Below, piece after piece: positions 1 to 64,000 of a stretch of 64,000 nucleotides of DNA. The translations under genes and the position numbers were made by a program. This DNA is from Candidatus Poribacteria bacterium (GTDB lineage: Bacteria; Poribacteria; WGA-4E; WGA-3G), in the NCBI GenBank assembly GCA_021295715.1, contig JAGWBV010000003.1, forward strand, positions 203,043 through 267,042, given 5' to 3'. The notes beneath the pieces were generated by a model that was given only the letters and a program-made list of their open reading frames with translations, was not told the DNA's origin and did no database searches. How positions within the stretch are numbered: the stretch's first letter is position 1; every line of letters begins with the position of its first letter.

Positions 1-1
1 A

Positions 2-334
2 ACGAAAGAAGAACCTAAGGTAGAACCGGTAGAAGAAATACCGGATCCGACAATACCCGAATTTTCACCAGAGACACAAGGATTCGGAATTGAACCGGAA
101 ATAGAAGGATTAGAAACTGAACCACCGCCTCCCACGCCACAAATCCCGTTGGTCCTGTGGATAGCGACGAACAAAGATCTGTATACACATCACACTCGCT
201 CTGCGGATGTATGGGAGTACACAACGACACCCCAGATACTCACGGGTGAATTGATAGTAGATTCTCTCGTCGTGGTAAACAATAGAATCTGGTTAGCGAC
301 CTCTAACGGTTTAGCAACTATGAATGCTCAATAA
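2..334 (+). CDS. 3' end of a gene entering from upstream (partial, function unknown)
   Basis: Frame 2 is open from the window edge to TAA at 332-334. It translates as a Pro/Glu-rich linker followed by a C-terminal domain. The ORF-track piece 149..334 is only its Met-initiated tail. Confidence 0.4.
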   Translation, partial: TKEEPKVEPVEEIPDPTIPEFSPETQGFGIEPEIEGLETEPPPPTPQIPLVLWIATNKDLYTHHTRSADVWEYTTTPQILTGELIVDSLVVVNNRIWLATSNGLATMNAQ

Positions 335-382
335 ACCTGTTCGCAAGCGTAAGATACGAAAACCGCAAGGTAAATTTATAAA

Positions 383-1219
383 ATGCAACCGACATCCACA
401 AAACTTATTACGCGTTGGGCAACTGGTGAACCCATCCAGGTCGAGGACGAGTTGGTTGTTGAGGAACCGCTTGAGATTCGGGTGGGACAACAGAGTTTGA
501 TCGTTGTGATGCGGACGCCCGGACACGATTTTGAACTCGCCGCGGGCTTTCTTTATACGGAAAGCCTCATCACTTCCGGTGATGACATCGAAATCATCGC
601 CTATTGTGATGAAGAAGATTCTGGGACGCAGTCGTCGGGTTTATCGTCGTTGCAGAATATTGTCAACGTTCGCCTTACGGAGGAACTGGACCTTGATGCC
701 GAATCAGGTTGGCAGCGGAATTTCCACGCAAATGCGAGTTGTGGACTCTGTGGCAAAATGACGATTGAATCCGTTAGACAGCAGGTATCGCCGTTGAATT
801 CCGGATTCCACACCAATCAAGAGGTATTCTATAAACTCAACGATCGGTTAAGAAAAGCGCAATCCGTTTTTGAAAAAACGGGTGGACTCCACGCCGCTGG
901 GTTATTCGATGAAAAGGGTGAACTCCTGATTATCAGGGAGGACATAGGCAGACACAACGCTGTCGATAAAGTGATCGGACACGCGTTACTATCTGACTTG
1001 GTGCCGCTTGATCGGTATATCTTGATGGTGAGCGGACGCGCCAGTTTTGAAATCGTCCAGAAAGCTCTGTTTGCGCGTATCCCGATTATCGTCGCCGTCT
1101 CGGCAGCATCTACACTCGCCGTAGATCTCGCCACAGAGGGTAACCTCACGTTAATAGGTTTCATGCGGGGGCAGAGCATGGCAGTCTATAGTTGTCCAGA
1201 ACGCATTCACTGTCAATAG
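383..1219 (+). CDS. fdhD: formate dehydrogenase accessory sulfurtransferase FdhD
   Basis: The 278-aa product matches FdhD/NarQ family length. It carries the signature GRHNAVDKVIG and a conserved Cys-containing loop (ASCGLCG). Confidence 0.85.
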   Translation: MQPTSTKLITRWATGEPIQVEDELVVEEPLEIRVGQQSLIVVMRTPGHDFELAAGFLYTESLITSGDDIEIIAYCDEEDSGTQSSGLSSLQNIVNVRLTEELDLDAESGWQRNFHANASCGLCGKMTIESVRQQVSPLNSGFHTNQEVFYKLNDRLRKAQSVFEKTGGLHAAGLFDEKGELLIIREDIGRHNAVDKVIGHALLSDLVPLDRYILMVSGRASFEIVQKALFARIPIIVAVSAASTLAVDLATEGNLTLIGFMRGQSMAVYSCPERIHCQ

Positions 1220-1336
1220 CGCACAAACGAAAAGGAGAGTCGGATAACTTTTGCTATCTTTTTGAGATGACGCGTCTCTATAGGGGTAAAAGGAATTCGG
1301 GCTTACAAAGCCCTCCTATAAAGGAGCAAAATTTTT

Positions 1337-1621
1337 ATGTTAAGCATTTTAAACGGCATCCAAGGGCTCGTCAATCTTCTATTTTTCGTAGCTATTGTTG
1401 GGACTTTGGTGGTCTCGTGGATATATGCCAGCCGGTTGAAGAAACAGTACGGTGCCGAGTTTCCGTGGAGCAAAACAGCCTCTATTGTCGGGATCGAAGT
1501 CCTACTTTGGATGGGATTTAACTTTTTCTGGGAAATTTTTGAAGCGTTCTGGCTGCCAATTACGATTGTCGCCATTATTGTTATTGTGCTTATCTCGCGA
1601 AAGAAAAGGAGATATGTATGA
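1337..1621 (+). CDS. small membrane protein (two TM helices, Lys/Arg-rich tail)
   Basis: AAGGAG sits 8 nt before the ATG. The product has two long hydrophobic stretches and no recognisable family. Confidence 0.4.
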   Translation: MLSILNGIQGLVNLLFFVAIVGTLVVSWIYASRLKKQYGAEFPWSKTASIVGIEVLLWMGFNFFWEIFEAFWLPITIVAIIVIVLISRKKRRYV

Positions 1622-1687
1622 GCAAAGTTAAGGGTGGTGTGCCTTGAACGCGCGCTACCCAAAAAATGAACCTAAGGAGTGCTAAAT

Positions 1688-2740
1688 ATGAGTCGGACAG
1701 GGAGAGCCGTGGTCGCGTGCGGCAAAGATTTTGAAATTCGTGAGTACCCGGTTCCTGAACCTGAACCTAACACGGTGCTGCTTCGTCAGGAGTTAGCAGG
1801 GATTTGCGGAACTGACCTTCACAACTGGCAGAACGGCTTCCAACAAGAAGTTTTACTCGGACATGAAAACGTCGGTATTATTGAGGCGATTGGTGAAGGC
1901 GTGGAAACCGATTATGTGGGTAAACCGGTTAAAGAGGGTGACAGGGTCATCTTCGCGCCGGGAACAAACTACGGTGCCTACGGCTTTCAGTGGAACCCAG
2001 ATGAGGCACCACATTTTCGCGGTGGGTTTGCGGATTATATGTATCTCAACTACCCGAATACATGCTTCATGAAGACCGATGCATCACCTGAAGTTGCTGT
2101 ACTCACAGAGCCGTTTACTGTCGGTGTTCACGCCGCAATGCGGGGTGAAATAAAATTGGGGGATACCGTCGTTGTGCAGGGTTCCGGTGCTATTGGGCTT
2201 GTGACGCTTGCGTGTGCGAAATTGAGCGGTGCCGCAAAAGCGATTATGGTCGGTGGACCTGCCGGACGATTGGAACTCGCGAAACGACTCGGTGCCGACG
2301 TAACGATTGACATTGAGGAGGTCACTTCTGTCGAGGAACGGACGGAACTCGTGAAAGCGGAAACGCCCCGTAAAGAGGGGGCAGATGTCGTCTTTGAATG
2401 CGCGGGTTTCCTTCCGGCAACGCCAGAGGGTTTGGGTTACACACGCCGTAGCGGGACTTTTGTTGAAGTTGGGCATTTTGTAGATATGGGTTCAATCGAT
2501 TTCAATATCAACCAATTGTTGATGCGCAAAAACCTTCGTGTTGAAGCTATTTGGGGAAGCAGTTACGAGCACTTCGTTCGTGGTTTACCACTCCTTGAAC
2601 AGAGCAATTTGCCGTTCGCCGACATGATTAGCCACCAACTGCCACTCTCACAGGTTGGGGACGGATTTAAGGCACTTGACGGCGGTTATCGTATTAAAGG
2701 TGAAACGGCGATTAAAATTGCGGTTCGGGCTGAAGAATAA
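1688..2740 (+). CDS. zinc-dependent alcohol dehydrogenase (MDR family, threonine/sorbitol dehydrogenase-like)
   Basis: The GICGTDLH zinc motif is followed by the GHE motif and a GSGAIG Rossmann motif. The likely true start is ATG 1688 (AAGGAG 8 nt upstream); the track starts at GTG 1679. Confidence 0.85.
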   Translation: MSRTGRAVVACGKDFEIREYPVPEPEPNTVLLRQELAGICGTDLHNWQNGFQQEVLLGHENVGIIEAIGEGVETDYVGKPVKEGDRVIFAPGTNYGAYGFQWNPDEAPHFRGGFADYMYLNYPNTCFMKTDASPEVAVLTEPFTVGVHAAMRGEIKLGDTVVVQGSGAIGLVTLACAKLSGAAKAIMVGGPAGRLELAKRLGADVTIDIEEVTSVEERTELVKAETPRKEGADVVFECAGFLPATPEGLGYTRRSGTFVEVGHFVDMGSIDFNINQLLMRKNLRVEAIWGSSYEHFVRGLPLLEQSNLPFADMISHQLPLSQVGDGFKALDGGYRIKGETAIKIAVRAEE

Positions 2741-2815
2741 ACAAATTCAAGAAAATCGTGCGTTCAAGCGCATATAATGTGCGCTGGTATCGCGCGCCCA
2801 CAGGAGGCATAATTA

Positions 2816-3835
2816 ATGGCAAAAACGTATCGCGTCGGCTTCGCATCTCTTGTGCATGACCATGTATGGGGTGAACTTCGCCACTGGAAGGCACATCCAA
2901 ACGTTGAAATTGTCGCTGCAGGCGATGTCAATGCGGAATTACGCGCCCAATTCAGCGCAGAAGTCGGTATCGAGAATATCTATAACTCTTGGCAAGAAAT
3001 GGTGGAGAAAGAGGAATTAGATATTGTCCAAGCGGCCTCGGAAAACAATGCGGGTGCTGACATCGTCGAAGCGGCAGCGGCGAAAGGGATCCACGTCGTA
3101 TCCGAAAAGCCGATGGCTGCGCGACTCTCACAAGCGGATCGGATGCTTGCCGCAGCGGAGAACGCTGGTACCCTATTGATGGTGAACTGGCCCACCGCAT
3201 GGAGTCCCGCACTCAACACCGCAATGAACCTCATCAAAGATGGGGCGATTGGCGACATTTTCTATTTCAAATGGCGTTCCGCACATAATGGACCGATGGA
3301 AATCGGGTGCTCTCGCTACTTCTATGAGTGGCTCTACGATGAAGAGAAAAATGGTGCAGGTGCGTTGATGGATTACTGTTGTTACTGCGCCGATATGTGT
3401 GCCTACCTCCTCGGTCTGCCACAGCAAGTAACGGCGTTCCGCGGCACCTTTGTTAAAGACTATCCGATCCCTGACGACAACGCCGTCATCGTCATGAAAT
3501 ACGGCAATGCGTTTGGACTCACGGAAGCATCTTGGACCCAAAAGGTTGGCTATATCACACCGAATCCGGTAGTCTATGGCACGGAGGGCGCGTTGATGGT
3601 AAGCGGCAACGAAGTTCACCTGCATCCTGCAAATGGCGACGCTGAAGTAGTTACCCCTGAACCACTCCCAGAGGGCAAACGCAACGCCGCGGAATACTTT
3701 ATTCACTGCTTGGAGACAGGCGAACCGATTGAAGGTCTGTGCAGTGCCAAAGTGAGCCGTGATGCCCAAGAAATCCTCGAAGCGGGACTGGTGTCAGCGG
3801 ATAGTGGACAGGTTGTTAACTTGCCGATGTCGTAA
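2816..3835 (+). CDS. Gfo/Idh/MocA family oxidoreductase
   Basis: An N-terminal NAD(P)-binding Rossmann region (RVGFASLVHDHVW ... EIVAAGD) precedes the typical C-terminal alpha/beta domain. GGAGG lies 8 nt upstream of the ATG. Confidence 0.85.
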   Translation: MAKTYRVGFASLVHDHVWGELRHWKAHPNVEIVAAGDVNAELRAQFSAEVGIENIYNSWQEMVEKEELDIVQAASENNAGADIVEAAAAKGIHVVSEKPMAARLSQADRMLAAAENAGTLLMVNWPTAWSPALNTAMNLIKDGAIGDIFYFKWRSAHNGPMEIGCSRYFYEWLYDEEKNGAGALMDYCCYCADMCAYLLGLPQQVTAFRGTFVKDYPIPDDNAVIVMKYGNAFGLTEASWTQKVGYITPNPVVYGTEGALMVSGNEVHLHPANGDAEVVTPEPLPEGKRNAAEYFIHCLETGEPIEGLCSAKVSRDAQEILEAGLVSADSGQVVNLPMS

Positions 3836-3888
3836 AGTATCACGGGTGCGGTTTCAGACCGTGCCCATAGGAACGTCAGGAGAAATTG

Positions 3889-4650
3889 ATGAGCAATAGA
3901 ATTCCAATAGCGTTACAACTATATTCCGTTAGAGATGATTGTGCAGGCGACCTATCTTTAACGCTCCAAGCGGTCGCACAGATGGGTTATGAAGGTGTTG
4001 AGTTTGCGGGTTACTATGATCGGACTGCCGAAGAATTACGCGGGATGTGCGATGACCTCGGATTGAAAGTTGCGGGGACGCATACAGGGATAAACACACT
4101 TCTCGGTGATGAACTCGCCAAAACGGTTGAATTCAACAAGGGACTCGGCAATCCGTATCTGATTGTGCCGGGACTCTCTGCGGAGTACCAAGGTTCGCAA
4201 CAAGCATGGCGTGAGACAGCAAAACTCTTCAACGATATTGCTGAAAAAATCGCTGATCAAGGGATGTTCACGGGTTACCACAATCACACAGGTGAATTCA
4301 CACCGATGGAAGATGAAGTTCCGTGGGATATATTCGGCGAGAACACCCGTGACGATGTCGTGATGCAAATTGACATCGGTCATGCCCTTCGCGCAGGTGC
4401 CGACCCTGTGGCGTATATTGAACGCTATCCCGGTAGATCGAAATTGGTGCACCTGAAAGAGTATTCACCTACGAATGACAAGGCAAACGTCGGTGAAGGT
4501 GAGATTCCGTGGGAGGCTGTGTTCCATGCCTGTGAAACCGTCGGTGGCACGGAGTGGTACATCGTTGAACAGGAAAGTTACGCCTATCCACCTCTTGAAT
4601 GTGCGGAACGCTGCATCGAAAATCTACGAAAGATGGGGAAAATTTCTTAA
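3889..4650 (+). CDS. sugar phosphate isomerase/epimerase (xylose-isomerase-like TIM barrel)
   Basis: The product shows the AP endonuclease 2 / xylose isomerase-like TIM pattern (GYEGVEF ... HNHTGEF ... IDIGH). Start is ATG 3889 with AGGAGA 5 nt upstream; the track begins at TTG 3886. Confidence 0.8.
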   Translation: MSNRIPIALQLYSVRDDCAGDLSLTLQAVAQMGYEGVEFAGYYDRTAEELRGMCDDLGLKVAGTHTGINTLLGDELAKTVEFNKGLGNPYLIVPGLSAEYQGSQQAWRETAKLFNDIAEKIADQGMFTGYHNHTGEFTPMEDEVPWDIFGENTRDDVVMQIDIGHALRAGADPVAYIERYPGRSKLVHLKEYSPTNDKANVGEGEIPWEAVFHACETVGGTEWYIVEQESYAYPPLECAERCIENLRKMGKIS

Positions 4651-4853
4651 TTATACCTTGCGGAGAAACAACGGACGTTTGAACGCTAACGTGCGTCCCT
4701 CAAATCCGTTTGCGTGTTTTTGCAATGTAATACAAGGAATGAATTTCGTCTATTCCCAGACTAAATCCGGTGTTTCTGCGTATTGTTGCAAGCTGCGTTT
4801 AAAAACCTTTCCGTAGATCCGCTTTCCACTTCGTTTCAAGCTGCGCGCTTTTT
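4646..4853 (-). repeat. copy of composite intergenic element, reverse-oriented relative to flanking genes (start-proximal box overlaps the stop codon of the upstream gene)
   Basis: TTAATTATACCTTGCGG at 4646-4663 is followed by the CGTCCCTCAAATCCGTTTGCGTGTTTTTGC and TTTCTGCGTATTGTTGCAAGC hairpin modules seen in the other copies. No gene start abuts the box in its sense orientation. Confidence 0.6.
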
Positions 4854-5612
4854 ATGCTAAAATCCAAAAATAGATTGACACCTAAAGGACAGCGACCTAC
4901 CAGTCGTTCCGATAGTGTTGAAACAGATCTTTTGCTCTGGTGGGAAGATTTTTATCTTCCCATTTTCGAGTACGTCCTCCCAAAAATTGGGAATCTGGAA
5001 GGGAAAAAGGTCCTTGAACTCGGTACTGGTACTGGGGGCACTGCGACGCTGCTGGCGAAACGGGGTGCCTCTGTTATCGGCATAGATTTACTGCCTTTTC
5101 GACTCGCTGAAGCGCAGGCGCGCGCAACAGAACACAACGTCGTTGAGGCGGTTAATTTTGCCCTGATGGACGCGACGCATCTCGCCTTTCCCGATAATAC
5201 CTTCGATTTTATCATTTCTAAATCCGTATTGGTTTTCACAGATCATCGGCAAACTGCGAAAGAATGCTACCGCGTTCTCAAACCGGAGGGAAAAGCGATC
5301 TTCATGGAAAACATGCGCCATCACCCGATGGTATGGTTGTATCGGAAAATGTTCCTGAAGTATTCGGGTAAACTGCGTTACTTTTCAGTGGGGGATATTG
5401 AAACCGTCGGTGCTGAATTTGAGAAGTTGGAGCATCGTGAGTTTCATCTCTCCGCCGTGAGCGCACTGTTTTGGCAGAAATGCATTTCTATCCCACTATT
5501 TTATCGGTGGAGCCTTCGCATCCTTAAAGTGATTGATACATCTCTCCTGAAATGCCTACCATTCCTCAAGCGATTCTGTTGGATTACTGCGATGATTTGC
5601 CACAGAGATTAG
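4854..5612 (+). CDS. class I SAM-dependent methyltransferase (type 11-like)
   Basis: VLELGTGTGGTATLLAKRGASVIGIDL is the glycine-rich SAM motif I, followed by an FDFIIS acidic motif. The N-terminal boundary is uncertain. Confidence 0.75.
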   Translation: MLKSKNRLTPKGQRPTSRSDSVETDLLLWWEDFYLPIFEYVLPKIGNLEGKKVLELGTGTGGTATLLAKRGASVIGIDLLPFRLAEAQARATEHNVVEAVNFALMDATHLAFPDNTFDFIISKSVLVFTDHRQTAKECYRVLKPEGKAIFMENMRHHPMVWLYRKMFLKYSGKLRYFSVGDIETVGAEFEKLEHREFHLSAVSALFWQKCISIPLFYRWSLRILKVIDTSLLKCLPFLKRFCWITAMICHRD

Positions 5613-5640
5613 TGATCTGACATACTTCCATAGTTAAGTG

Positions 5641-5990
5641 CGTAGGATGGGTTGAACCATAGGTGTCAATTTAAGAAAAAACTGATCGTGGTACCGTAGG
5701 TTGGGTAGAACGGATTCCATCAAACCCCGAAAAAGGCACAGAAAAATGGAAACTCGCCAGACACGCTATAGCCACCAGATACCGAGTGAAACCCAACGCT
5801 TTGGGGGGAGACTTCCGTGACACTGACCGCATGAAGTTGGGTTTCACTGTGTTTTTGAGAGTATAGGGTGTCTATCAAATTTCAGGTGTGTTTGGCACCC
5901 CGATGTTCGCCTTCTCAACACCGTTCTACCCAACCTACGGGCGCATTGTTCTTGGGTTCAACCCGGTTCGGTTAGGGAACCGAACCTATC
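5641..5990. repeat. MITE-like element with 20-bp perfect terminal inverted repeats and nested internal hairpins
   Basis: CCGTAGGTTGGGTAGAACGG at 5694-5713 is the exact reverse complement of 5921-5940. There is an outer pair GGGTTGAACC (5649-5658) / GGTTCAACCC (5955-5964) and an inner pair GTGAAACCCAAC / GTTGGGTTTCAC. A related partial copy lies at 19655-19700. Confidence 0.5.
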
Positions 5991-6070
5991 GGGGTCTGGG
6001 TGAACGTCGCGTTTAATGCAATATAAACTTTTAGAAGTGGTATAGCATGGCGGAGAAGTCTTTGCCGTTG

Positions 6071-60146: not shown

Positions 60147-61439
60147 ATGAAGACCTTTGCTATCTTTCTATTTTGCGGTGCGTTGTTGTTCTCAGGCTGT
60201 GGAATCCTCACTACCAAGCCGATTCAAACTGAACCACCGATACCCTCTGTAGACCCGATTGAAAGACTACAGACCGATATTGATGCCGTTTTGCAAGAAG
60301 AGTTGTTCACGAATGCAAGTATCGGTATCAAAGTGGTTACTGTTGAAACAGGGGAGGTGATTTACGAAAAAAATTCCCATAAGTTACACCATCCCGCCTC
60401 TACAACAAAACTCTTCACAGCAGCGACTGCCTTAGCGAAATTGGGGTCGGACTATCAATGTGAGACCACACTCTATGCTGATGCCATTGTGAGGGGTGAA
60501 GTCTTAGGGAATATCTATCTAAAAGGTAGAGCTGATCCGGTGCTCCAACCCCAAGACATTGCCAAATTAGGTGATGCCTTGCTGCAAGCGGGTGTGAAGT
60601 CAATACAGGGGAACATCGTTGTCGATGAAACATATCTTGATGCCATTTGGGAGGGTCCAGGGTGGATGTGGGACGATAGACCGCTGTGGATCAACGCGTT
60701 GAGTATCCGAGAAGTCGAACCTGATGCAAGCAAAATGAGTAGGGCACTCGCCTGCGGACACCTCTTGAAAACGACGTTGATGGAAAAAGGCGTTAACGTC
60801 ATAGGTAATGTAGTGTCAGGAACAGTCTCGTCAGAGGCACACACTGTTGCCAAGCACCTATCACCGCCACTTGCTGACATCCTCAAGTTAATGAACAAAC
60901 CGAGTGACAATTGGACTGCCGAACTGGTTTTCAAAACAATTGGTGCTGAGGTAATGGGTGAACCGGGGACGTGGAAAAAGGGTAGAGACGTTGTTGCTGG
61001 GTTTTTAGCAGAAATCATGGACGAACCGCCGATGCATCGGTTCGTTGACGGATCTGGACTTTCTCGTTACAACCTCCTCAACGCCGAATTACTCACGAAG
61101 TTGCTCGTCTATATGTATCACAATTTTGAGGTGATGCCGGAGTTTTTGGCATCGCTTCCGATTGCGGGTGTCGATGGCACCCTGAAAAATAGGATGCAAG
61201 GTATGTCTGCTGAGAAGGTATTGCGTGCGAAAACGGGGACGTTGAGTGGTGTTTCTGCACTCGCTGGCTATACTGTGACAGCAGACGATGAGGTGTTTGC
61301 GTTCGGGATCCTCATCAGTCATTATGTTGGTCCAGCAAGATTGGCGCGAAGTATCCAAGATAAGATTGGGAATTATTTGACAGGGTTTAATCGCCATCCG
61401 GTGAGTAACGTTAGCAGTAAACCCTCCCAAGACGAATAG
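60147..61439 (+). CDS. dacB: D-alanyl-D-alanine carboxypeptidase/endopeptidase (PBP4, peptidase S13)
   Basis: Lipoprotein-type signal (LLFSGCG), SxxK (ASTTKLFT), SDN (PSDNWTAE) and KTG (AKTGTLSG) motifs. Confidence 0.8.
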   Translation: MKTFAIFLFCGALLFSGCGILTTKPIQTEPPIPSVDPIERLQTDIDAVLQEELFTNASIGIKVVTVETGEVIYEKNSHKLHHPASTTKLFTAATALAKLGSDYQCETTLYADAIVRGEVLGNIYLKGRADPVLQPQDIAKLGDALLQAGVKSIQGNIVVDETYLDAIWEGPGWMWDDRPLWINALSIREVEPDASKMSRALACGHLLKTTLMEKGVNVIGNVVSGTVSSEAHTVAKHLSPPLADILKLMNKPSDNWTAELVFKTIGAEVMGEPGTWKKGRDVVAGFLAEIMDEPPMHRFVDGSGLSRYNLLNAELLTKLLVYMYHNFEVMPEFLASLPIAGVDGTLKNRMQGMSAEKVLRAKTGTLSGVSALAGYTVTADDEVFAFGILISHYVGPARLARSIQDKIGNYLTGFNRHPVSNVSSKPSQDE

Positions 61440-61731
61440 GAATAACTTGAGCATATACTTTATCAAGGCAATTCTCTTGCTATCTGGGTTTTCACGTGGT
61501 ATAATATTAGCGATTTTGAGGGACAGATCTAATAAGATACTAAAGTTTGGACAATATTTCAGAACTCAAGCTGCCTTGTCAAAAGGCAGCGTCCTATCTT
61601 TTTGAACACAGGTGTTAATATTCTGCGAGTTTGTATTTTCAGGGGAACTCGTAGAAAATCCGCACGCCCGGATCTGTGCCTGTAGATAAGCGACTCGAAG
61701 CCCTTGTGTGAGTTTCTTGGGGTGATACCAA

Positions 61732-62081
61732 TGAATACCGAGGAACTCACAGACGGTCTTGACGGTTATCGGTTTTTCCGTCGGGGGTGGCAGTGTGAAG
61801 ATGAGTTTCGTGAGACTCGCTGCAGTGAAACTCAGTTGCACGAAGCGATTGATGCTTTTTCGAGATTTCACCTGATACCCGCTGAACCCGAAGTGTTGCT
61901 TGACGTCTCGAAAGGCGGTCTCGATCTGCCACCTGTGTTGATAGTATTCAATGATCTTTGGTATCTCGAGCGTCAGGTCTGTTGTAAAGACGAGGAAATA
62001 CCGATAGGGTTTCCAACGTTTCGGTGTAATTTCACCATCGGCCGTGCCAGCGGTTCCGCTGCTGGTATTCCAAAAACATAG
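61732..62081 (+). CDS. hypothetical protein
   Basis: ATG 61732 is the first in-frame Met with a plausible context. No family was recognised. Confidence 0.3.
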
Positions 62082-62119
62082 CAGTTTTTAATTCAACAAA
62101 CACACTACATGGCGCTTTT

Positions 62120-62440
62120 ATGCGAATTGTTAGAGAAAATGAGTTAGCGAAATTTGCAGAGCGACATCCAAATACTCGTGCCTCCCTCAACCATTGGGCA
62201 CAATTGATGAGAGAAGGAAGTTTTGAGTCGATTATTAACTTGCGTGAAACGTTCGGACGCGTTTCACCAGTGAAGGTCCGTCCCCGAAGGTTTAATCGCA
62301 AATCGGTAACACTGACGGTTTTCAATATTAGTGGCAATGATGCCCGCCTCATTGCGGTTGTACAATACACGAAGCAGGTTGTGATTATCGATCAGGTGCT
62401 AACGCATAATGAGTATGATACAGGAAATTGGAGAAAGTAA
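62120..62440 (+). CDS. higB: type II toxin-antitoxin system HigB (YgjN) family toxin
   Basis: MRIVRENELAKFAERHP ... VFNISGNDARLIAVVQYTKQVVIIDQVLTHNEYD aligns along its length with E. coli HigB/YgjN (MHLITQKALKDAAEKYP ... VFNVGGNELRVVAMV ... IREVMTHKEYD). Confidence 0.8.
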   Translation: MRIVRENELAKFAERHPNTRASLNHWAQLMREGSFESIINLRETFGRVSPVKVRPRRFNRKSVTLTVFNISGNDARLIAVVQYTKQVVIIDQVLTHNEYDTGNWRK

Positions 62441-62443
62441 ATC

Positions 62444-64000
62444 ATGTTGACTGAAAAACCTCCTATACAAAATGTATCGCCAACACCAACTTCTTTGGGA
62501 CTTAACGTCCTATTTGAGAAAACAGACATTAGTGTGTTCCTCCAAAAGCAAACAATTGCTGAATTCAGTTCTGAACATCTACAAACACTAATGTGGGAGA
62601 ACGCCCCTGAAATTCCGATGCCATCTTCCGAACCGGCGCAAGCATCAGTACAGCAACAGATTGAATCCGGTCCATACTCGGAGAGCGACTACCAATGGCT
62701 TGTGGAGATCCTTGAGGGGTTAACCGATGTAGCGAATCGGAATGCCAATAACAGTTTCACTACACTAACCGAAACTGACTACGAGCAACTTGATGCAGTG
62801 CTAAAAGAGTTAATCTATGTCGTTGGTGACGATGAAAAGCATCCCTTGGCACCATTAATGGATTTTATCGGTATCCTTATCACGAAATATGAGGACGAAC
62901 ACTTTCAAAAATTAACAGATCTGTTTCCTGAACTCACAAAAAATATAACATCAAATGACACAAAAATTGAGGATCGAAAAGAAAAATCCACGACCAAGGT
63001 CTCAGACAAATCCACAAATACTCTTGCCGCAGCGGCTTTTTTTTCTATCGGTAACCTTTTTTTGGAAGGAGATAAGAGAGAAGAAGCAATTCTCGCCTAC
63101 CATCAGTCAATTCGGCTAAAACCTAATTCTGCCGAAACCTACTACCATCGTGGCGAGGCAAAATACTTGCTTGGGAAGTATGAATCTGCAGCTGCTGACT
63201 TCGATGAAGCCATTCGGATTAACCCAACTGATCCTTATGCCTATCTTAAGCTCGCCAATGTAAAGTGCGCGCTGAGTCAATATAAGGCTGCTATTGCTGA
63301 TTTTGACAAAGTTATCCAATTGAATTCAGATGAAGTTTGTGTTTACTTTGCTTATCTGATGCGTGGTTGTATAAATAGGTTACTGGGTCAATATAAGGCT
63401 GCTATTGCTGATGCTGATGAAGCCCTTCGATTAAATTTGGATGATCCTTCCGTCTATCTTGCTTACGCCACTCGCGGTGGGGCAAGGAATGCCCTCAAAG
63501 AATATGAAGATGCTATTGGTGATTTTAACGAAGCTCTCCAGTACAATGCAGATGATGTTGCAACTTATGTTATGCGTGGGCACGCGAGAGCTGCATTAGG
63601 TCAACATAAGGCTGCTATTGCTGACTATGACGAAGTAATATGCCGCAAGTCAGATGATGCCTATGTTTACTTTAGGCGAGGACTTAGTAAGTTAATCAAA
63701 AATATGTTTGAAACTGCCATTGTTGATTTTGATGAGAGCATTCAACTCAAGGTAGACGATCCCTGTGCCTACCTTATGCGAGGAACAGCACAGTTCATAA
63801 GGAAACAATACGACGCTGCTATTGCAGATATCGACCAAGCCATTCGACTAAAACCTGATTCTGCTCTAAACCATATAGGCTTTGCCTACACTATGCGAGG
63901 AGGTATAAAATTCATGAAAGGTCAATATAAGATTGCGATGGACGACCTTGATAAAGCTATTCAGATTAAATCCGATCCTTCTCTAAACCATATAGATCTT
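62444..64000 (+). CDS. partial (3'-truncated by window) protein with a HigA N-terminal-like domain followed by at least 9 TPR repeats, encoded 4 nt after higB
   Basis: Open frame from ATG 62444 to the window end (absent from the ORF track because no stop). DYEQLDAVLKELIYVVGDDEKHPLAPLMDFIGILITKYEDEHF resembles the E. coli HigA/YgjM N-domain (EEQYTQALELVDHLLLNDPENPLLDLVCAKITAWEESAPEF). From about residue 200 onward there are TPR units (AILAYHQSIRLKPNSAETYYHRGEA ...). Confidence 0.6.
   Translation, partial: MLTEKPPIQNVSPTPTSLGLNVLFEKTDISVFLQKQTIAEFSSEHLQTLMWENAPEIPMPSSEPAQASVQQQIESGPYSESDYQWLVEILEGLTDVANRNANNSFTTLTETDYEQLDAVLKELIYVVGDDEKHPLAPLMDFIGILITKYEDEHFQKLTDLFPELTKNITSNDTKIEDRKEKSTTKVSDKSTNTLAAAAFFSIGNLFLEGDKREEAILAYHQSIRLKPNSAETYYHRGEAKYLLGKYESAAADFDEAIRINPTDPYAYLKLANVKCALSQYKAAIADFDKVIQLNSDEVCVYFAYLMRGCINRLLGQYKAAIADADEALRLNLDDPSVYLAYATRGGARNALKEYEDAIGDFNEALQYNADDVATYVMRGHARAALGQHKAAIADYDEVICRKSDDAYVYFRRGLSKLIKNMFETAIVDFDESIQLKVDDPCAYLMRGTAQFIRKQYDAAIADIDQAIRLKPDSALNHIGFAYTMRGGIKFMKGQYKIAMDDLDKAIQIKSDPSLNHIDL

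Follow-up and report, generated by a model that had tools for sequence, protein, structure and literature searches.

Among the closest known relatives of the locus analysed here is the HigB-HigA toxin-antitoxin (TA) pair of Escherichia coli K-12 (YgjN-YgjM; structures 5IFG and 6KML), in which the gene for a toxin of Pfam family PF09907 comes first and the antitoxin gene follows within a few bases. HigA opens with a helical N-terminal domain (N-domain), carries its helix-turn-helix (HTH) at the C-terminal side (PMC7984235) and binds palindromes in its promoter (PMC11980606), whereas proteins of the HigB family function as ribosome-dependent mRNases, as summarized in PMC11980606. Two further groups of systems add a third component. 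In the anti-phage system PD-lambda-2 (Vassallo et al. 2022, PMC9519451), a HigB-like protein is accompanied by a HigA-like::peptidase fusion and one further protein, and in toxin-antitoxin-chaperone (TAC) systems the antitoxin is protected by a SecB-like chaperone, which a phage protein can displace (PMC11980606, PMC9519451). Here, we describe a locus at the end of a stretch of 64,000 nucleotides from a Candidatus Poribacteria bacterium (contig JAGWBV010000003.1; hereafter, the window), where a higB gene is followed by a gene that joins a HigA-N-like core to a long array of tetratricopeptide repeats (TPRs). We consider it probable that the locus is a fixed, vertically inherited module derived from HigBA, in which HigB is kept inactive by the core and the TPR part serves as a functionally linked third component.

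The locus resembles the E. coli pair in its PF09907 toxin, in the order of the genes, in the few bases that separate them and in the homologous helical N-domain with which E. coli HigA opens. It differs from that pair in the second protein, which has no HTH and brings in a 76-residue leader predicted to be disordered, an extra helix that appears to be duplicated and about 15 TPRs, amounting to 740 amino acids (aa). With PD-lambda-2 it shares a HigB-like first gene and a multidomain second protein with a HigA-like start, and in PD-lambda-2, too, a third component is needed for function. However, PD-lambda-2 B keeps both an HTH and an ImmA/IrrE-type peptidase and C is P4 antitoxin-like, whereas the window locus has no HTH, no peptidase and, among its neighbouring open reading frames (ORFs), no third small gene of this kind; its accessory part is the TPR array, and it occupies a stable chromosomal site rather than a defence island or a mobile element. 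The PADLOC model PD-Lambda-2_B recognizes E. coli HigA and P0104, a bridging protein described below, but not the window core, even with E values of up to 10 allowed; the full protein returned only weak TPR-type matches in PADLOC. TAC systems (HigB1-HigA1-SecB-like of Mycobacterium tuberculosis; HigBAC and CmdTAC of E. coli) likewise combine a HigB-type toxin, an antitoxin and a third component that binds proteins and is genetically linked to the antitoxin, and the logic could be a common one, with the third part governing antitoxin stability. Their chaperone, however, is SecB-like and recognizes a C-terminal chaperone addiction (ChAD) extension of the antitoxin, whereas the third part considered here is TPR-based and either fused or adjacent. 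No SecB-like protein is encoded among the neighbours of the locus (PBP4, PhyH, sulfite oxidase and superoxide dismutase [SOD]), and the disordered residues 1 to 76 and the linker of the window protein are at most candidates for a ChAD-type extension. Because it has neither a PD-Lambda-2_B match nor a SecB-like gene, the locus belongs to neither PD-lambda-2 nor TAC. We found no description of a HigB with a TPR-linked HigA-N antitoxin in the literature searched.

The higB gene and its 740-codon partner

The toxin gene higB spans positions 62120 to 62440 of the forward strand (ATG at 62120, TAA at 62438 to 62440) and encodes a 106-aa, YgjN-type member of the RelE superfamily. The protein matches the Pfam model HigB_toxin (PF09907) with an E value of 1.9e-18 and 66.9 bits (cut-off, 27) over profile positions 2 to 73 of 74, and a search of the PDB sequences aligned it end to end with the E. 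coli/Shigella HigB structures 5IFG_A and 5YCL_B (E of ∼3e-6). Five of its residues, R76, T95, H96, E98 and Y99, the last four making up a T-H-x-E-Y motif, are invariant in seven divergent HigB homologues, including E. coli HigB; we take R76 and the motif to be catalytic. The family matches and the invariant residues bear out the preliminary description of this locus, which had called the toxin a clear member of the YgjN/HigB family. The HigB proteins of the Poribacteria species in the locus set are 85 to 93% identical, and the median Nei-Gojobori ratio of nonsynonymous to synonymous substitution rates (dN/dS) of higB across 36 ortholog pairs is 0.088, at a dS of 0.51. To judge by its sequence, the window HigB is probably an active ribosome-dependent mRNA endonuclease, and toxic. 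Compared with E. coli HigB, the Poribacteria proteins carry a basic insertion of ∼11 to 14 residues (VKVRPRRFNRKSVT; HigB residues ∼51 to 64, window 62270 to 62310).

The second gene starts at ATG 62444, 4 nt past the last base of the higB stop codon (i.e., after three spacer bases), and its first 519 codons fill the forward strand from 62444 to 64000, where the gene leaves the window. The frame is free of stops through base 64000, and the ORF is missing from the mechanical ORF list because it reaches the window end without a stop, just as had been supposed. We completed it from metagenome contigs. An identical HigB occurs in nine of these, four of which (L001 to L004) share the window neighbourhood, with DNA upstream of higB that is 99.7 to 99.9% identical to that of the window. 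In all four the second gene has 740 codons, and the encoded protein differs from the 519 residues of the window at a single residue in a comparison made by eye.

Four regions can be told apart in the second protein. The N-terminal extension (residues 1 to 76; 62444 to 62671) is probably disordered, with an AlphaFold2 (AF2) predicted local distance difference test score (pLDDT) below 50. It is followed by a three-helix core of HigA-N type (residues 77 to 166; 62672 to 62941), modelled at a pLDDT of 85 and, by homology to HigA, the presumed HigB-binding domain, and then by a variable linker (residues 167 to 194; 62942 to 63025), again with a pLDDT below 50. The rest of the window part (residues 195 to 519; 63026 to 64000) consists of TPR units 1 to 9 and the start of unit 10. 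The ∼90 unique residues that had been placed before the HigA-like segment were thus roughly right; on closer reading, residues 1 to 76 are predicted to be disordered, an extra helix occupies residues 80 to 103 and the strictly HigA-like part is 105 to 162. Pfam TPR_1 matches the window part in nine stretches (E of 3.6e-47), and simple motif parsing divides the full protein into 15 units, some of them 37 to 39 residues long, which agrees with the earlier count of at least nine units. The last 240 residues give only TPR-type matches in Pfam, and the repeats run to the C-terminal helix, where the protein closes with a conserved tail (..FQKALELAE..NQDLKTEIEQSLKELN).

At the DNA level the TPR units are repeats of 60 to 81% identity that recur at 102, 111 or 117 nt or at multiples of these distances. 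Because this identity is shared at in-frame spacings, units can easily be gained or lost in frame; the orthologues range from 440 to 740 aa. Median dN/dS values differ by region, with 0.137 for the core (residues 77 to 165), 0.17 for the last 120 residues, 0.41 for the linker (taken as residues 166 to 200) and 0.44 for residues 1 to 76. Toxin, core and TPR array are all under purifying selection, whereas the value for residues 1 to 76 indicates relaxed constraint on the predicted disordered leader.

Relationship of the core to the HigA N-domain

The preliminary description had proposed that a segment of the second protein can be aligned to the N-domain of E. coli HigA (YgjM), and three approaches point the same way. 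The first is a bridging sequence. When residues 77 to 170 of the Poribacteria family (alignment A2) were turned into a profile and searched against 1.84 billion representative proteins, 419 of these matched at E ≤ 1e-3 and 77 at E ≤ 1e-10. Among the matches is the 132-aa protein P0104 (E of 6.5e-10), which aligns over its full length with E. coli HigA (residues 9 to 132 against 12 to 137 of 5IFG_B; E of 1e-9), ends in a segment that matches a hidden Markov model (HMM) of the enterobacterial HigA HTH (E of 1.9e-16) and, in a pairwise BLASTP comparison, is 63% identical to the window ORF over 49 residues (ORF 105 to 153; E of 3e-17). Profile-profile comparison with hhalign of a 145-sequence core alignment against the N-terminal 78 columns of an 89-sequence enterobacterial HigA alignment gave a score of 29.2 (P of 4.7e-5) over 48 columns, which pair ORF residues 108 to 162 with HigA residues 25 to 72. 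All 31 controls scored lower (9.6 for the reversed profile and at most 18 for 30 column-shuffled profiles). Finally, AF2 run on residues 77 to 170 with a 112-sequence multiple sequence alignment predicted three long helices (pLDDT of 85), for which Foldseek ranked three chains of E. coli HigA, 5ifg_B, 6kmq_B and 5ifg_D, in places 1 to 3 among 350,542 PDB chains. Taken together, the bridging sequence, the profile-profile comparison and the ranking of the predicted fold lead us to regard the homology of the core to the HigA N-domain as established. In E. coli this N-domain reportedly contacts HigB (5IFG; work ascribed to Yang et al. 2016 and Jadhav et al. 2020). The core of the window protein (residues 77 to 166) probably binds and neutralizes HigB as well.

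Several simpler comparisons were uninformative. Aligned by hhalign to the single E. coli HigA sequence, a shallow family profile covered only 19 columns at a probability of 2%, and the 145-sequence HMM scored E. coli HigA alone at a nonsignificant 4.4 bits. A PDB search with another alignment, A5, returned only TPR proteins because that alignment was contaminated by TPR starts, and a first AF2 model of residues 1 to 194 (pLDDT of 55) yielded an uninformative Foldseek search. The first core helix (SESDYQWLVEILEGLTDV) appears to duplicate the beginning of the HigA-like helix (TETDYEQLDAVLKELIYV; ORF residues 77 to 128, window 62672 to 62830), and BLASTP with P0104 produces a second, weak high-scoring segment pair on it. 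This helix may have arisen by a duplication within the protein that is confined to the TPR-linked subfamily.

Pfam and NCBIfam detected no HTH family in either the 519-aa or the 740-aa protein. Neither an HTH nor any other Pfam match was found in the small ORFs that lie between PBP4 and higB or run antisense to the toxin gene, so the neighbouring ORFs offer no unannotated HTH antitoxin of the kind that might have explained the pair otherwise. An HMM of the enterobacterial HigA C-domain, run on 162 proteins, found a complete HTH in P0104 only, truncated starts of one in P0120 and P0162, and none in any Poribacteria protein. Among 140 of the best 150 representative matches to the core, TPRs occur in 21 and a Pfam HTH in none.

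Proteins that consist of little but this core are numerous. A profile of the stand-alone group matched at least 7,996 of 5.8 billion proteins at E ≤ 0.001, all but four of the 8,000 candidates that were scored. The best 120 of these matches are 74 to 97 aa long and have no Pfam domain, and those among them that are named by NCBI come from Poribacteria, Zixiibacteriota, Pyrinomonadaceae, cyanobacteria and Desantisbacteria. NCBI calls such proteins "hypothetical protein," and IMG automatically names them "HTH-type transcriptional regulator/antitoxin HigA." Stand-alone, HTH-less proteins of ∼75 to 150 aa have in common with the window protein the core motif ..TExEY..L...LD.LID.VGEDE.HPLASLM..IG.LIE.YEDEHVPEL., the absence of a DNA-binding domain and, at four loci (L025, L026, L027 and L035), the place directly after a PF09907 HigB gene. 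In three of them the core gene starts 3 to 4 nt after higB (L025, 146 aa; L026, 114 aa; and L035, 79 aa, from Pyrinomonadaceae according to NCBI). These proteins stop right past the core, whereas the window protein goes on into the linker and the TPR array. No paper describing the family was found in the literature searched. With HTH-less HigA-N proteins so common, the window protein is not unusual in lacking an HTH; its distinctive feature is the TPR partner, be it fused or adjacent, and not the loss of the HTH. Two statements of the preliminary description change accordingly. It is true that the protein has no HTH and that TPRs continue to its end, but to say that they stand in place of the HTH is misleading, as the nearest relatives are stand-alone and HTH-less. 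Similarly, the architecture is unusual for a type II TA pair in its TPR partner or fusion, but not in its HTH-less HigA-N domain, which is common.

Some stand-alone HigA-N-like genes are orphans with no adjoining higB. One arrangement found in Poribacteria (L032 to L034, positions 2501 to 4714), including a contig (L033) from the metagenome sample that gave L001, has a 75-aa stand-alone gene with no higB upstream and, 51 nt later, a gene for a 644-aa DUF8034 protein; the 75-aa product may be an orphan antitoxin or part of another pairing. In P0081, P0091, P0135, P0143, P0160 and L023 (positions 1284 to 4949), the core has a long N-terminal extension in front of it and tandem peptide repeats on its C-terminal side (e.g., RPPGRGLRAAYNADEPEYTPAQLNLIKSQ), and in L023 the gene for this core and peptide-repeat protein is followed by a separate TPR gene.

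Conservation of the locus, its split form and its upstream region

When one genome per species was scanned by pattern, 12 loci came up; the titles name Candidatus Poribacteria or uncultured Poribacteria for 11 of them and an "uncultured bacterium" for the other. Eleven of these loci have in common a neighbourhood made up of a PBP4-type peptidase S13 gene (beyond the contig end in L013), higB, the core::TPR gene and, on the minus strand, phyH and a sulfite oxidase gene. At the window locus, too, the gene downstream of core::TPR is phyH on the opposite strand. The locus is a stable, vertically inherited chromosomal site and not an island; no relatives were found in viral contigs. The exception is L019 (positions 3349 to 4480), which has a different right-hand neighbourhood, no higB and two small core-containing ORFs, one of 96 aa and a truncated one of 227 aa. 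The 3-nt gap after the higB stop is kept in the orthologous loci with an intact higB, and the core is paired with a PF09907 HigB at 3 to 12 nt in independent lineages (L022, twice; L025; L026; L027; L035). The gene pair is translationally coupled. The fusion of a HigA-N domain to TPRs likewise has homologues, both in the syntenic Poribacteria loci and in the distant tandem pairs of L022.

The clearest indication of what belongs to the module comes from loci in which the fused gene is replaced by two. L027 and L029 have the same Poribacteria synteny (epimerase, LeuA-like and PBP4 genes on one side; phyH, sulfite oxidase and SOD genes on the other) but three genes at the site, which encode a HigB of 99 aa, a core-only antitoxin of 147 aa and, beyond a 173-nt gap, a TPR protein of 537 aa. 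The latter is 39% identical to residues 168 to 737 of the fused protein (E of 2e-118), and the alignment covers the first repeat and the C-terminal tail. A split layout is also seen in L024. Since fused and split forms occupy the orthologous locus, antitoxin and TPR protein are likely to work together, and we regard this comparison of sequences as strong evidence that they are functionally linked. L022 (positions 1 to 4311) adds a tandem array in which the end of a TPR protein is followed by a HigB (111 aa), a core::TPR protein (560 aa), a second HigB (105 aa) and a second core::TPR protein (436 aa). The module therefore duplicates as a unit. The 436-aa protein (P0034) is a more distant paralogue and bears an extra tail, basic and acidic, past the conserved C-terminal ending.

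Other copies are rearranged. In a variant that lacks higB (L015, positions 3878 to 6043, and P0012), a deletion took higB and the first ∼65 antitoxin codons but spared the core and the TPRs, leaving an ORF of 721 aa that overlaps the end of the PBP4 gene. The new N-terminus of this ORF (MTGWNELCGEEESS..) is also found in a 243-aa protein of another genome. In the metagenome proteins P0011 and P0017, the N-terminus of HigB (MRIVRENELA.FAE.H.NTRASL) is fused in frame to antitoxin sequence; both apparently come from deletion fusions or from copies of the locus that are decaying.

Upstream of higB, a candidate sigma-70-like promoter for the operon (TTGCTA-17-TATAAT with a TG; 61477 to 61505, forward strand) is a weak one, as the number of such promoter-like sites does not exceed the shuffle expectation. 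Its TATAAT(ATT) box is shared by several orthologous loci, where it lies ∼120 nt upstream of higB, and in the window a 485-bp insertion (61540 to 62024) intervenes. This insertion is present in L001 to L004, absent from L006, a near-identical strain with flanks of 98 to 99% identity, and from other Poribacteria species, and has no second copy within the window. The insertion contains the greater part of a 116-aa ORF (61731 to 62081) that has no match in Pfam, PADLOC or Rfam. An ORF at 61704 to 62081 was considered as a third-component regulator and rejected, because it lies in the insertion that L006 and the other species lack and has no Pfam match. No operator-like conserved palindrome stood out upstream of higB, and Rfam returned nothing for positions 61400 to 62500. 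The antitoxin probably does not autoregulate its own transcription, unlike E. coli HigA.

A proposed mechanism and its alternatives

In the mechanism that we propose, HigB, as a ribosome-dependent mRNA endonuclease of the YgjN/PF09907 type, would be co-translated with the 740-aa protein, and the three-helix core (residues 77 to 166) would hold it inactive through direct binding. Because it has no DNA-binding domain, the 740-aa protein would be unable to repress its own promoter in the way of E. coli HigA. The 15-TPR solenoid would be a protein- or peptide-binding accessory, acting as antitoxin stabilizer, chaperone or ligand sensor, and the partner bound to it would decide what becomes of the antitoxin, and with it whether HigB is released, like the third component in TAC and PD-lambda-2. 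By this analogy we assign a role as stabilizer or sensor to the TPR array with modest confidence. What the sequences themselves show is the order and spacing of the genes, the homology of both domains, the absence of an HTH, the synteny, the purifying selection and the alternation between fusion and fission. More speculative, and in our judgement rather doubtful, is the extension of this mechanism to an undescribed tripartite system of HigB, HTH-less HigA-N antitoxin and TPR partner (two genes where fused, three where split), in which a protein or peptide from a phage, the sponge host or the cell itself would act through the TPRs on the stability or conformation of the antitoxin and thereby switch on translation arrest by HigB.

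Some observations weigh against a HigBA-derived module. Pfam and NCBIfam scans of residues 1 to 194/199 found no match, phmmer and hmmsearch with the N-region or the shallow family profile did not return HigA from the PDB, and the Foldseek matches to HigA are individually nonsignificant (E of 1.5 to 2.6; TM scores of 0.39 to 0.42). The final 221 residues of the 740-aa protein come from the near-identical contigs and not from the window. Moreover, higB is a pseudogene or absent in four of the 12 genomes: it is interrupted by a nonsense codon in L010, shortened by a 5′ deletion in L017 and missing from L015 and L019. Three of these four loci (L010, L015 and L017) retain a long core::TPR ORF of 447 to 721 aa. 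Because the long ORF persists where higB is lost, the TPR protein may function independently of HigB. The silence of the direct searches, PDB HMM searches included, is what would be expected if the similarity to HigA were spurious and an ordinary TPR protein stood next to a HigB that is an orphan or neutralized in trans; a 75-aa stand-alone HigA-N-like gene does occur elsewhere in Poribacteria, including the metagenome sample of L001. We find this scarcely credible. The 63% identity to P0104 over 49 aa largely refutes it, hhalign and Foldseek also point to HigA, so that a profile check is positive where the direct searches are silent, and the adjacency to HigB recurs across lineages; besides, the HigA N-domain has no Pfam model, since E. 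coli HigA itself matches HTH_3 only. The losses of higB fit better with a domesticated or decaying TA remnant, in which the TPRs have a job unrelated to the toxin, the core is vestigial, the fusion is an accident due to a lost stop codon and intergenic region, and HigB is dispensable. The truncated or HigB-fused fragments P0011 and P0017 and the freely varying number of TPRs, with proteins of 440 to 740 aa, would also agree with decay. Still, over 36 ortholog pairs with a dS of ∼0.5, dN/dS is as low as 0.088 for higB and 0.137 for the core, the 3-nt coupling is kept, and the combination of HigB, core and TPRs recurs in divergent paralogues and tandem arrays, which makes a remnant unlikely.

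Two further explanations would assign the second protein an activity of its own. Poribacteria are sponge symbionts, and sponge symbionts have been reported to be rich in TPR-type repeat proteins. The TPR protein could then be a eukaryote-like repeat effector acting on the sponge host, its position beside higB being meaningless. Its N-terminus, however, shows no obvious secretion signal when read by eye rather than with a predictor, and the HigA-type domain, the translational coupling to higB and the presence of all three genes of the split form at the same locus would be left unexplained, so we hold a host effector to be very improbable. Nor do we give much credence to a reversal of roles, in which the second protein would be the growth inhibitor or effector and the HigB-like protein its restraint. 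PD-lambda-2 provides the precedent, as its HigA-like B was the toxic component and was rescued by A (PMC9519451), and the window HigB does match the PADLOC model PD-Lambda-2_A (PDLC03979; E of 1.3e-16). PD-lambda-2 B, however, owns an HTH and a peptidase. The window core, by contrast, is not recognized by the PD-Lambda-2_B model, and the ORF lacks any enzymatic domain; in addition, the conserved RNase-type residues of HigB are intact. A vertically inherited module of HigB, HigA-N-type core and linked TPR protein remains the explanation that we favour.

Type II antitoxins are usually presented as a combination of a neutralizing and a DNA-binding domain. The window locus presents a HigA neutralizing domain without the DNA-binding one, in a form for which neither Pfam nor NCBIfam has a model, and the 7,996 or more HTH-less HigA-N matches point to a large and poorly annotated class of HigB partners. 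The Poribacteria have this domain tied to a long array of TPRs, as a fusion in one lineage and with the two genes side by side in another, and the arrangement is under purifying selection at one site across species. The resulting model is one of a repeat-protein scaffold that would control a ribosome-dependent RNase, in symbionts enriched for both TA systems and TPR proteins. If the tripartite interpretation is true, the locus would represent a counterpart of TAC that is built on TPRs and conserved throughout a phylum of sponge symbionts, and it would widen the range of accessory modules that gate TA toxins beyond SecB-like chaperones and peptidases.

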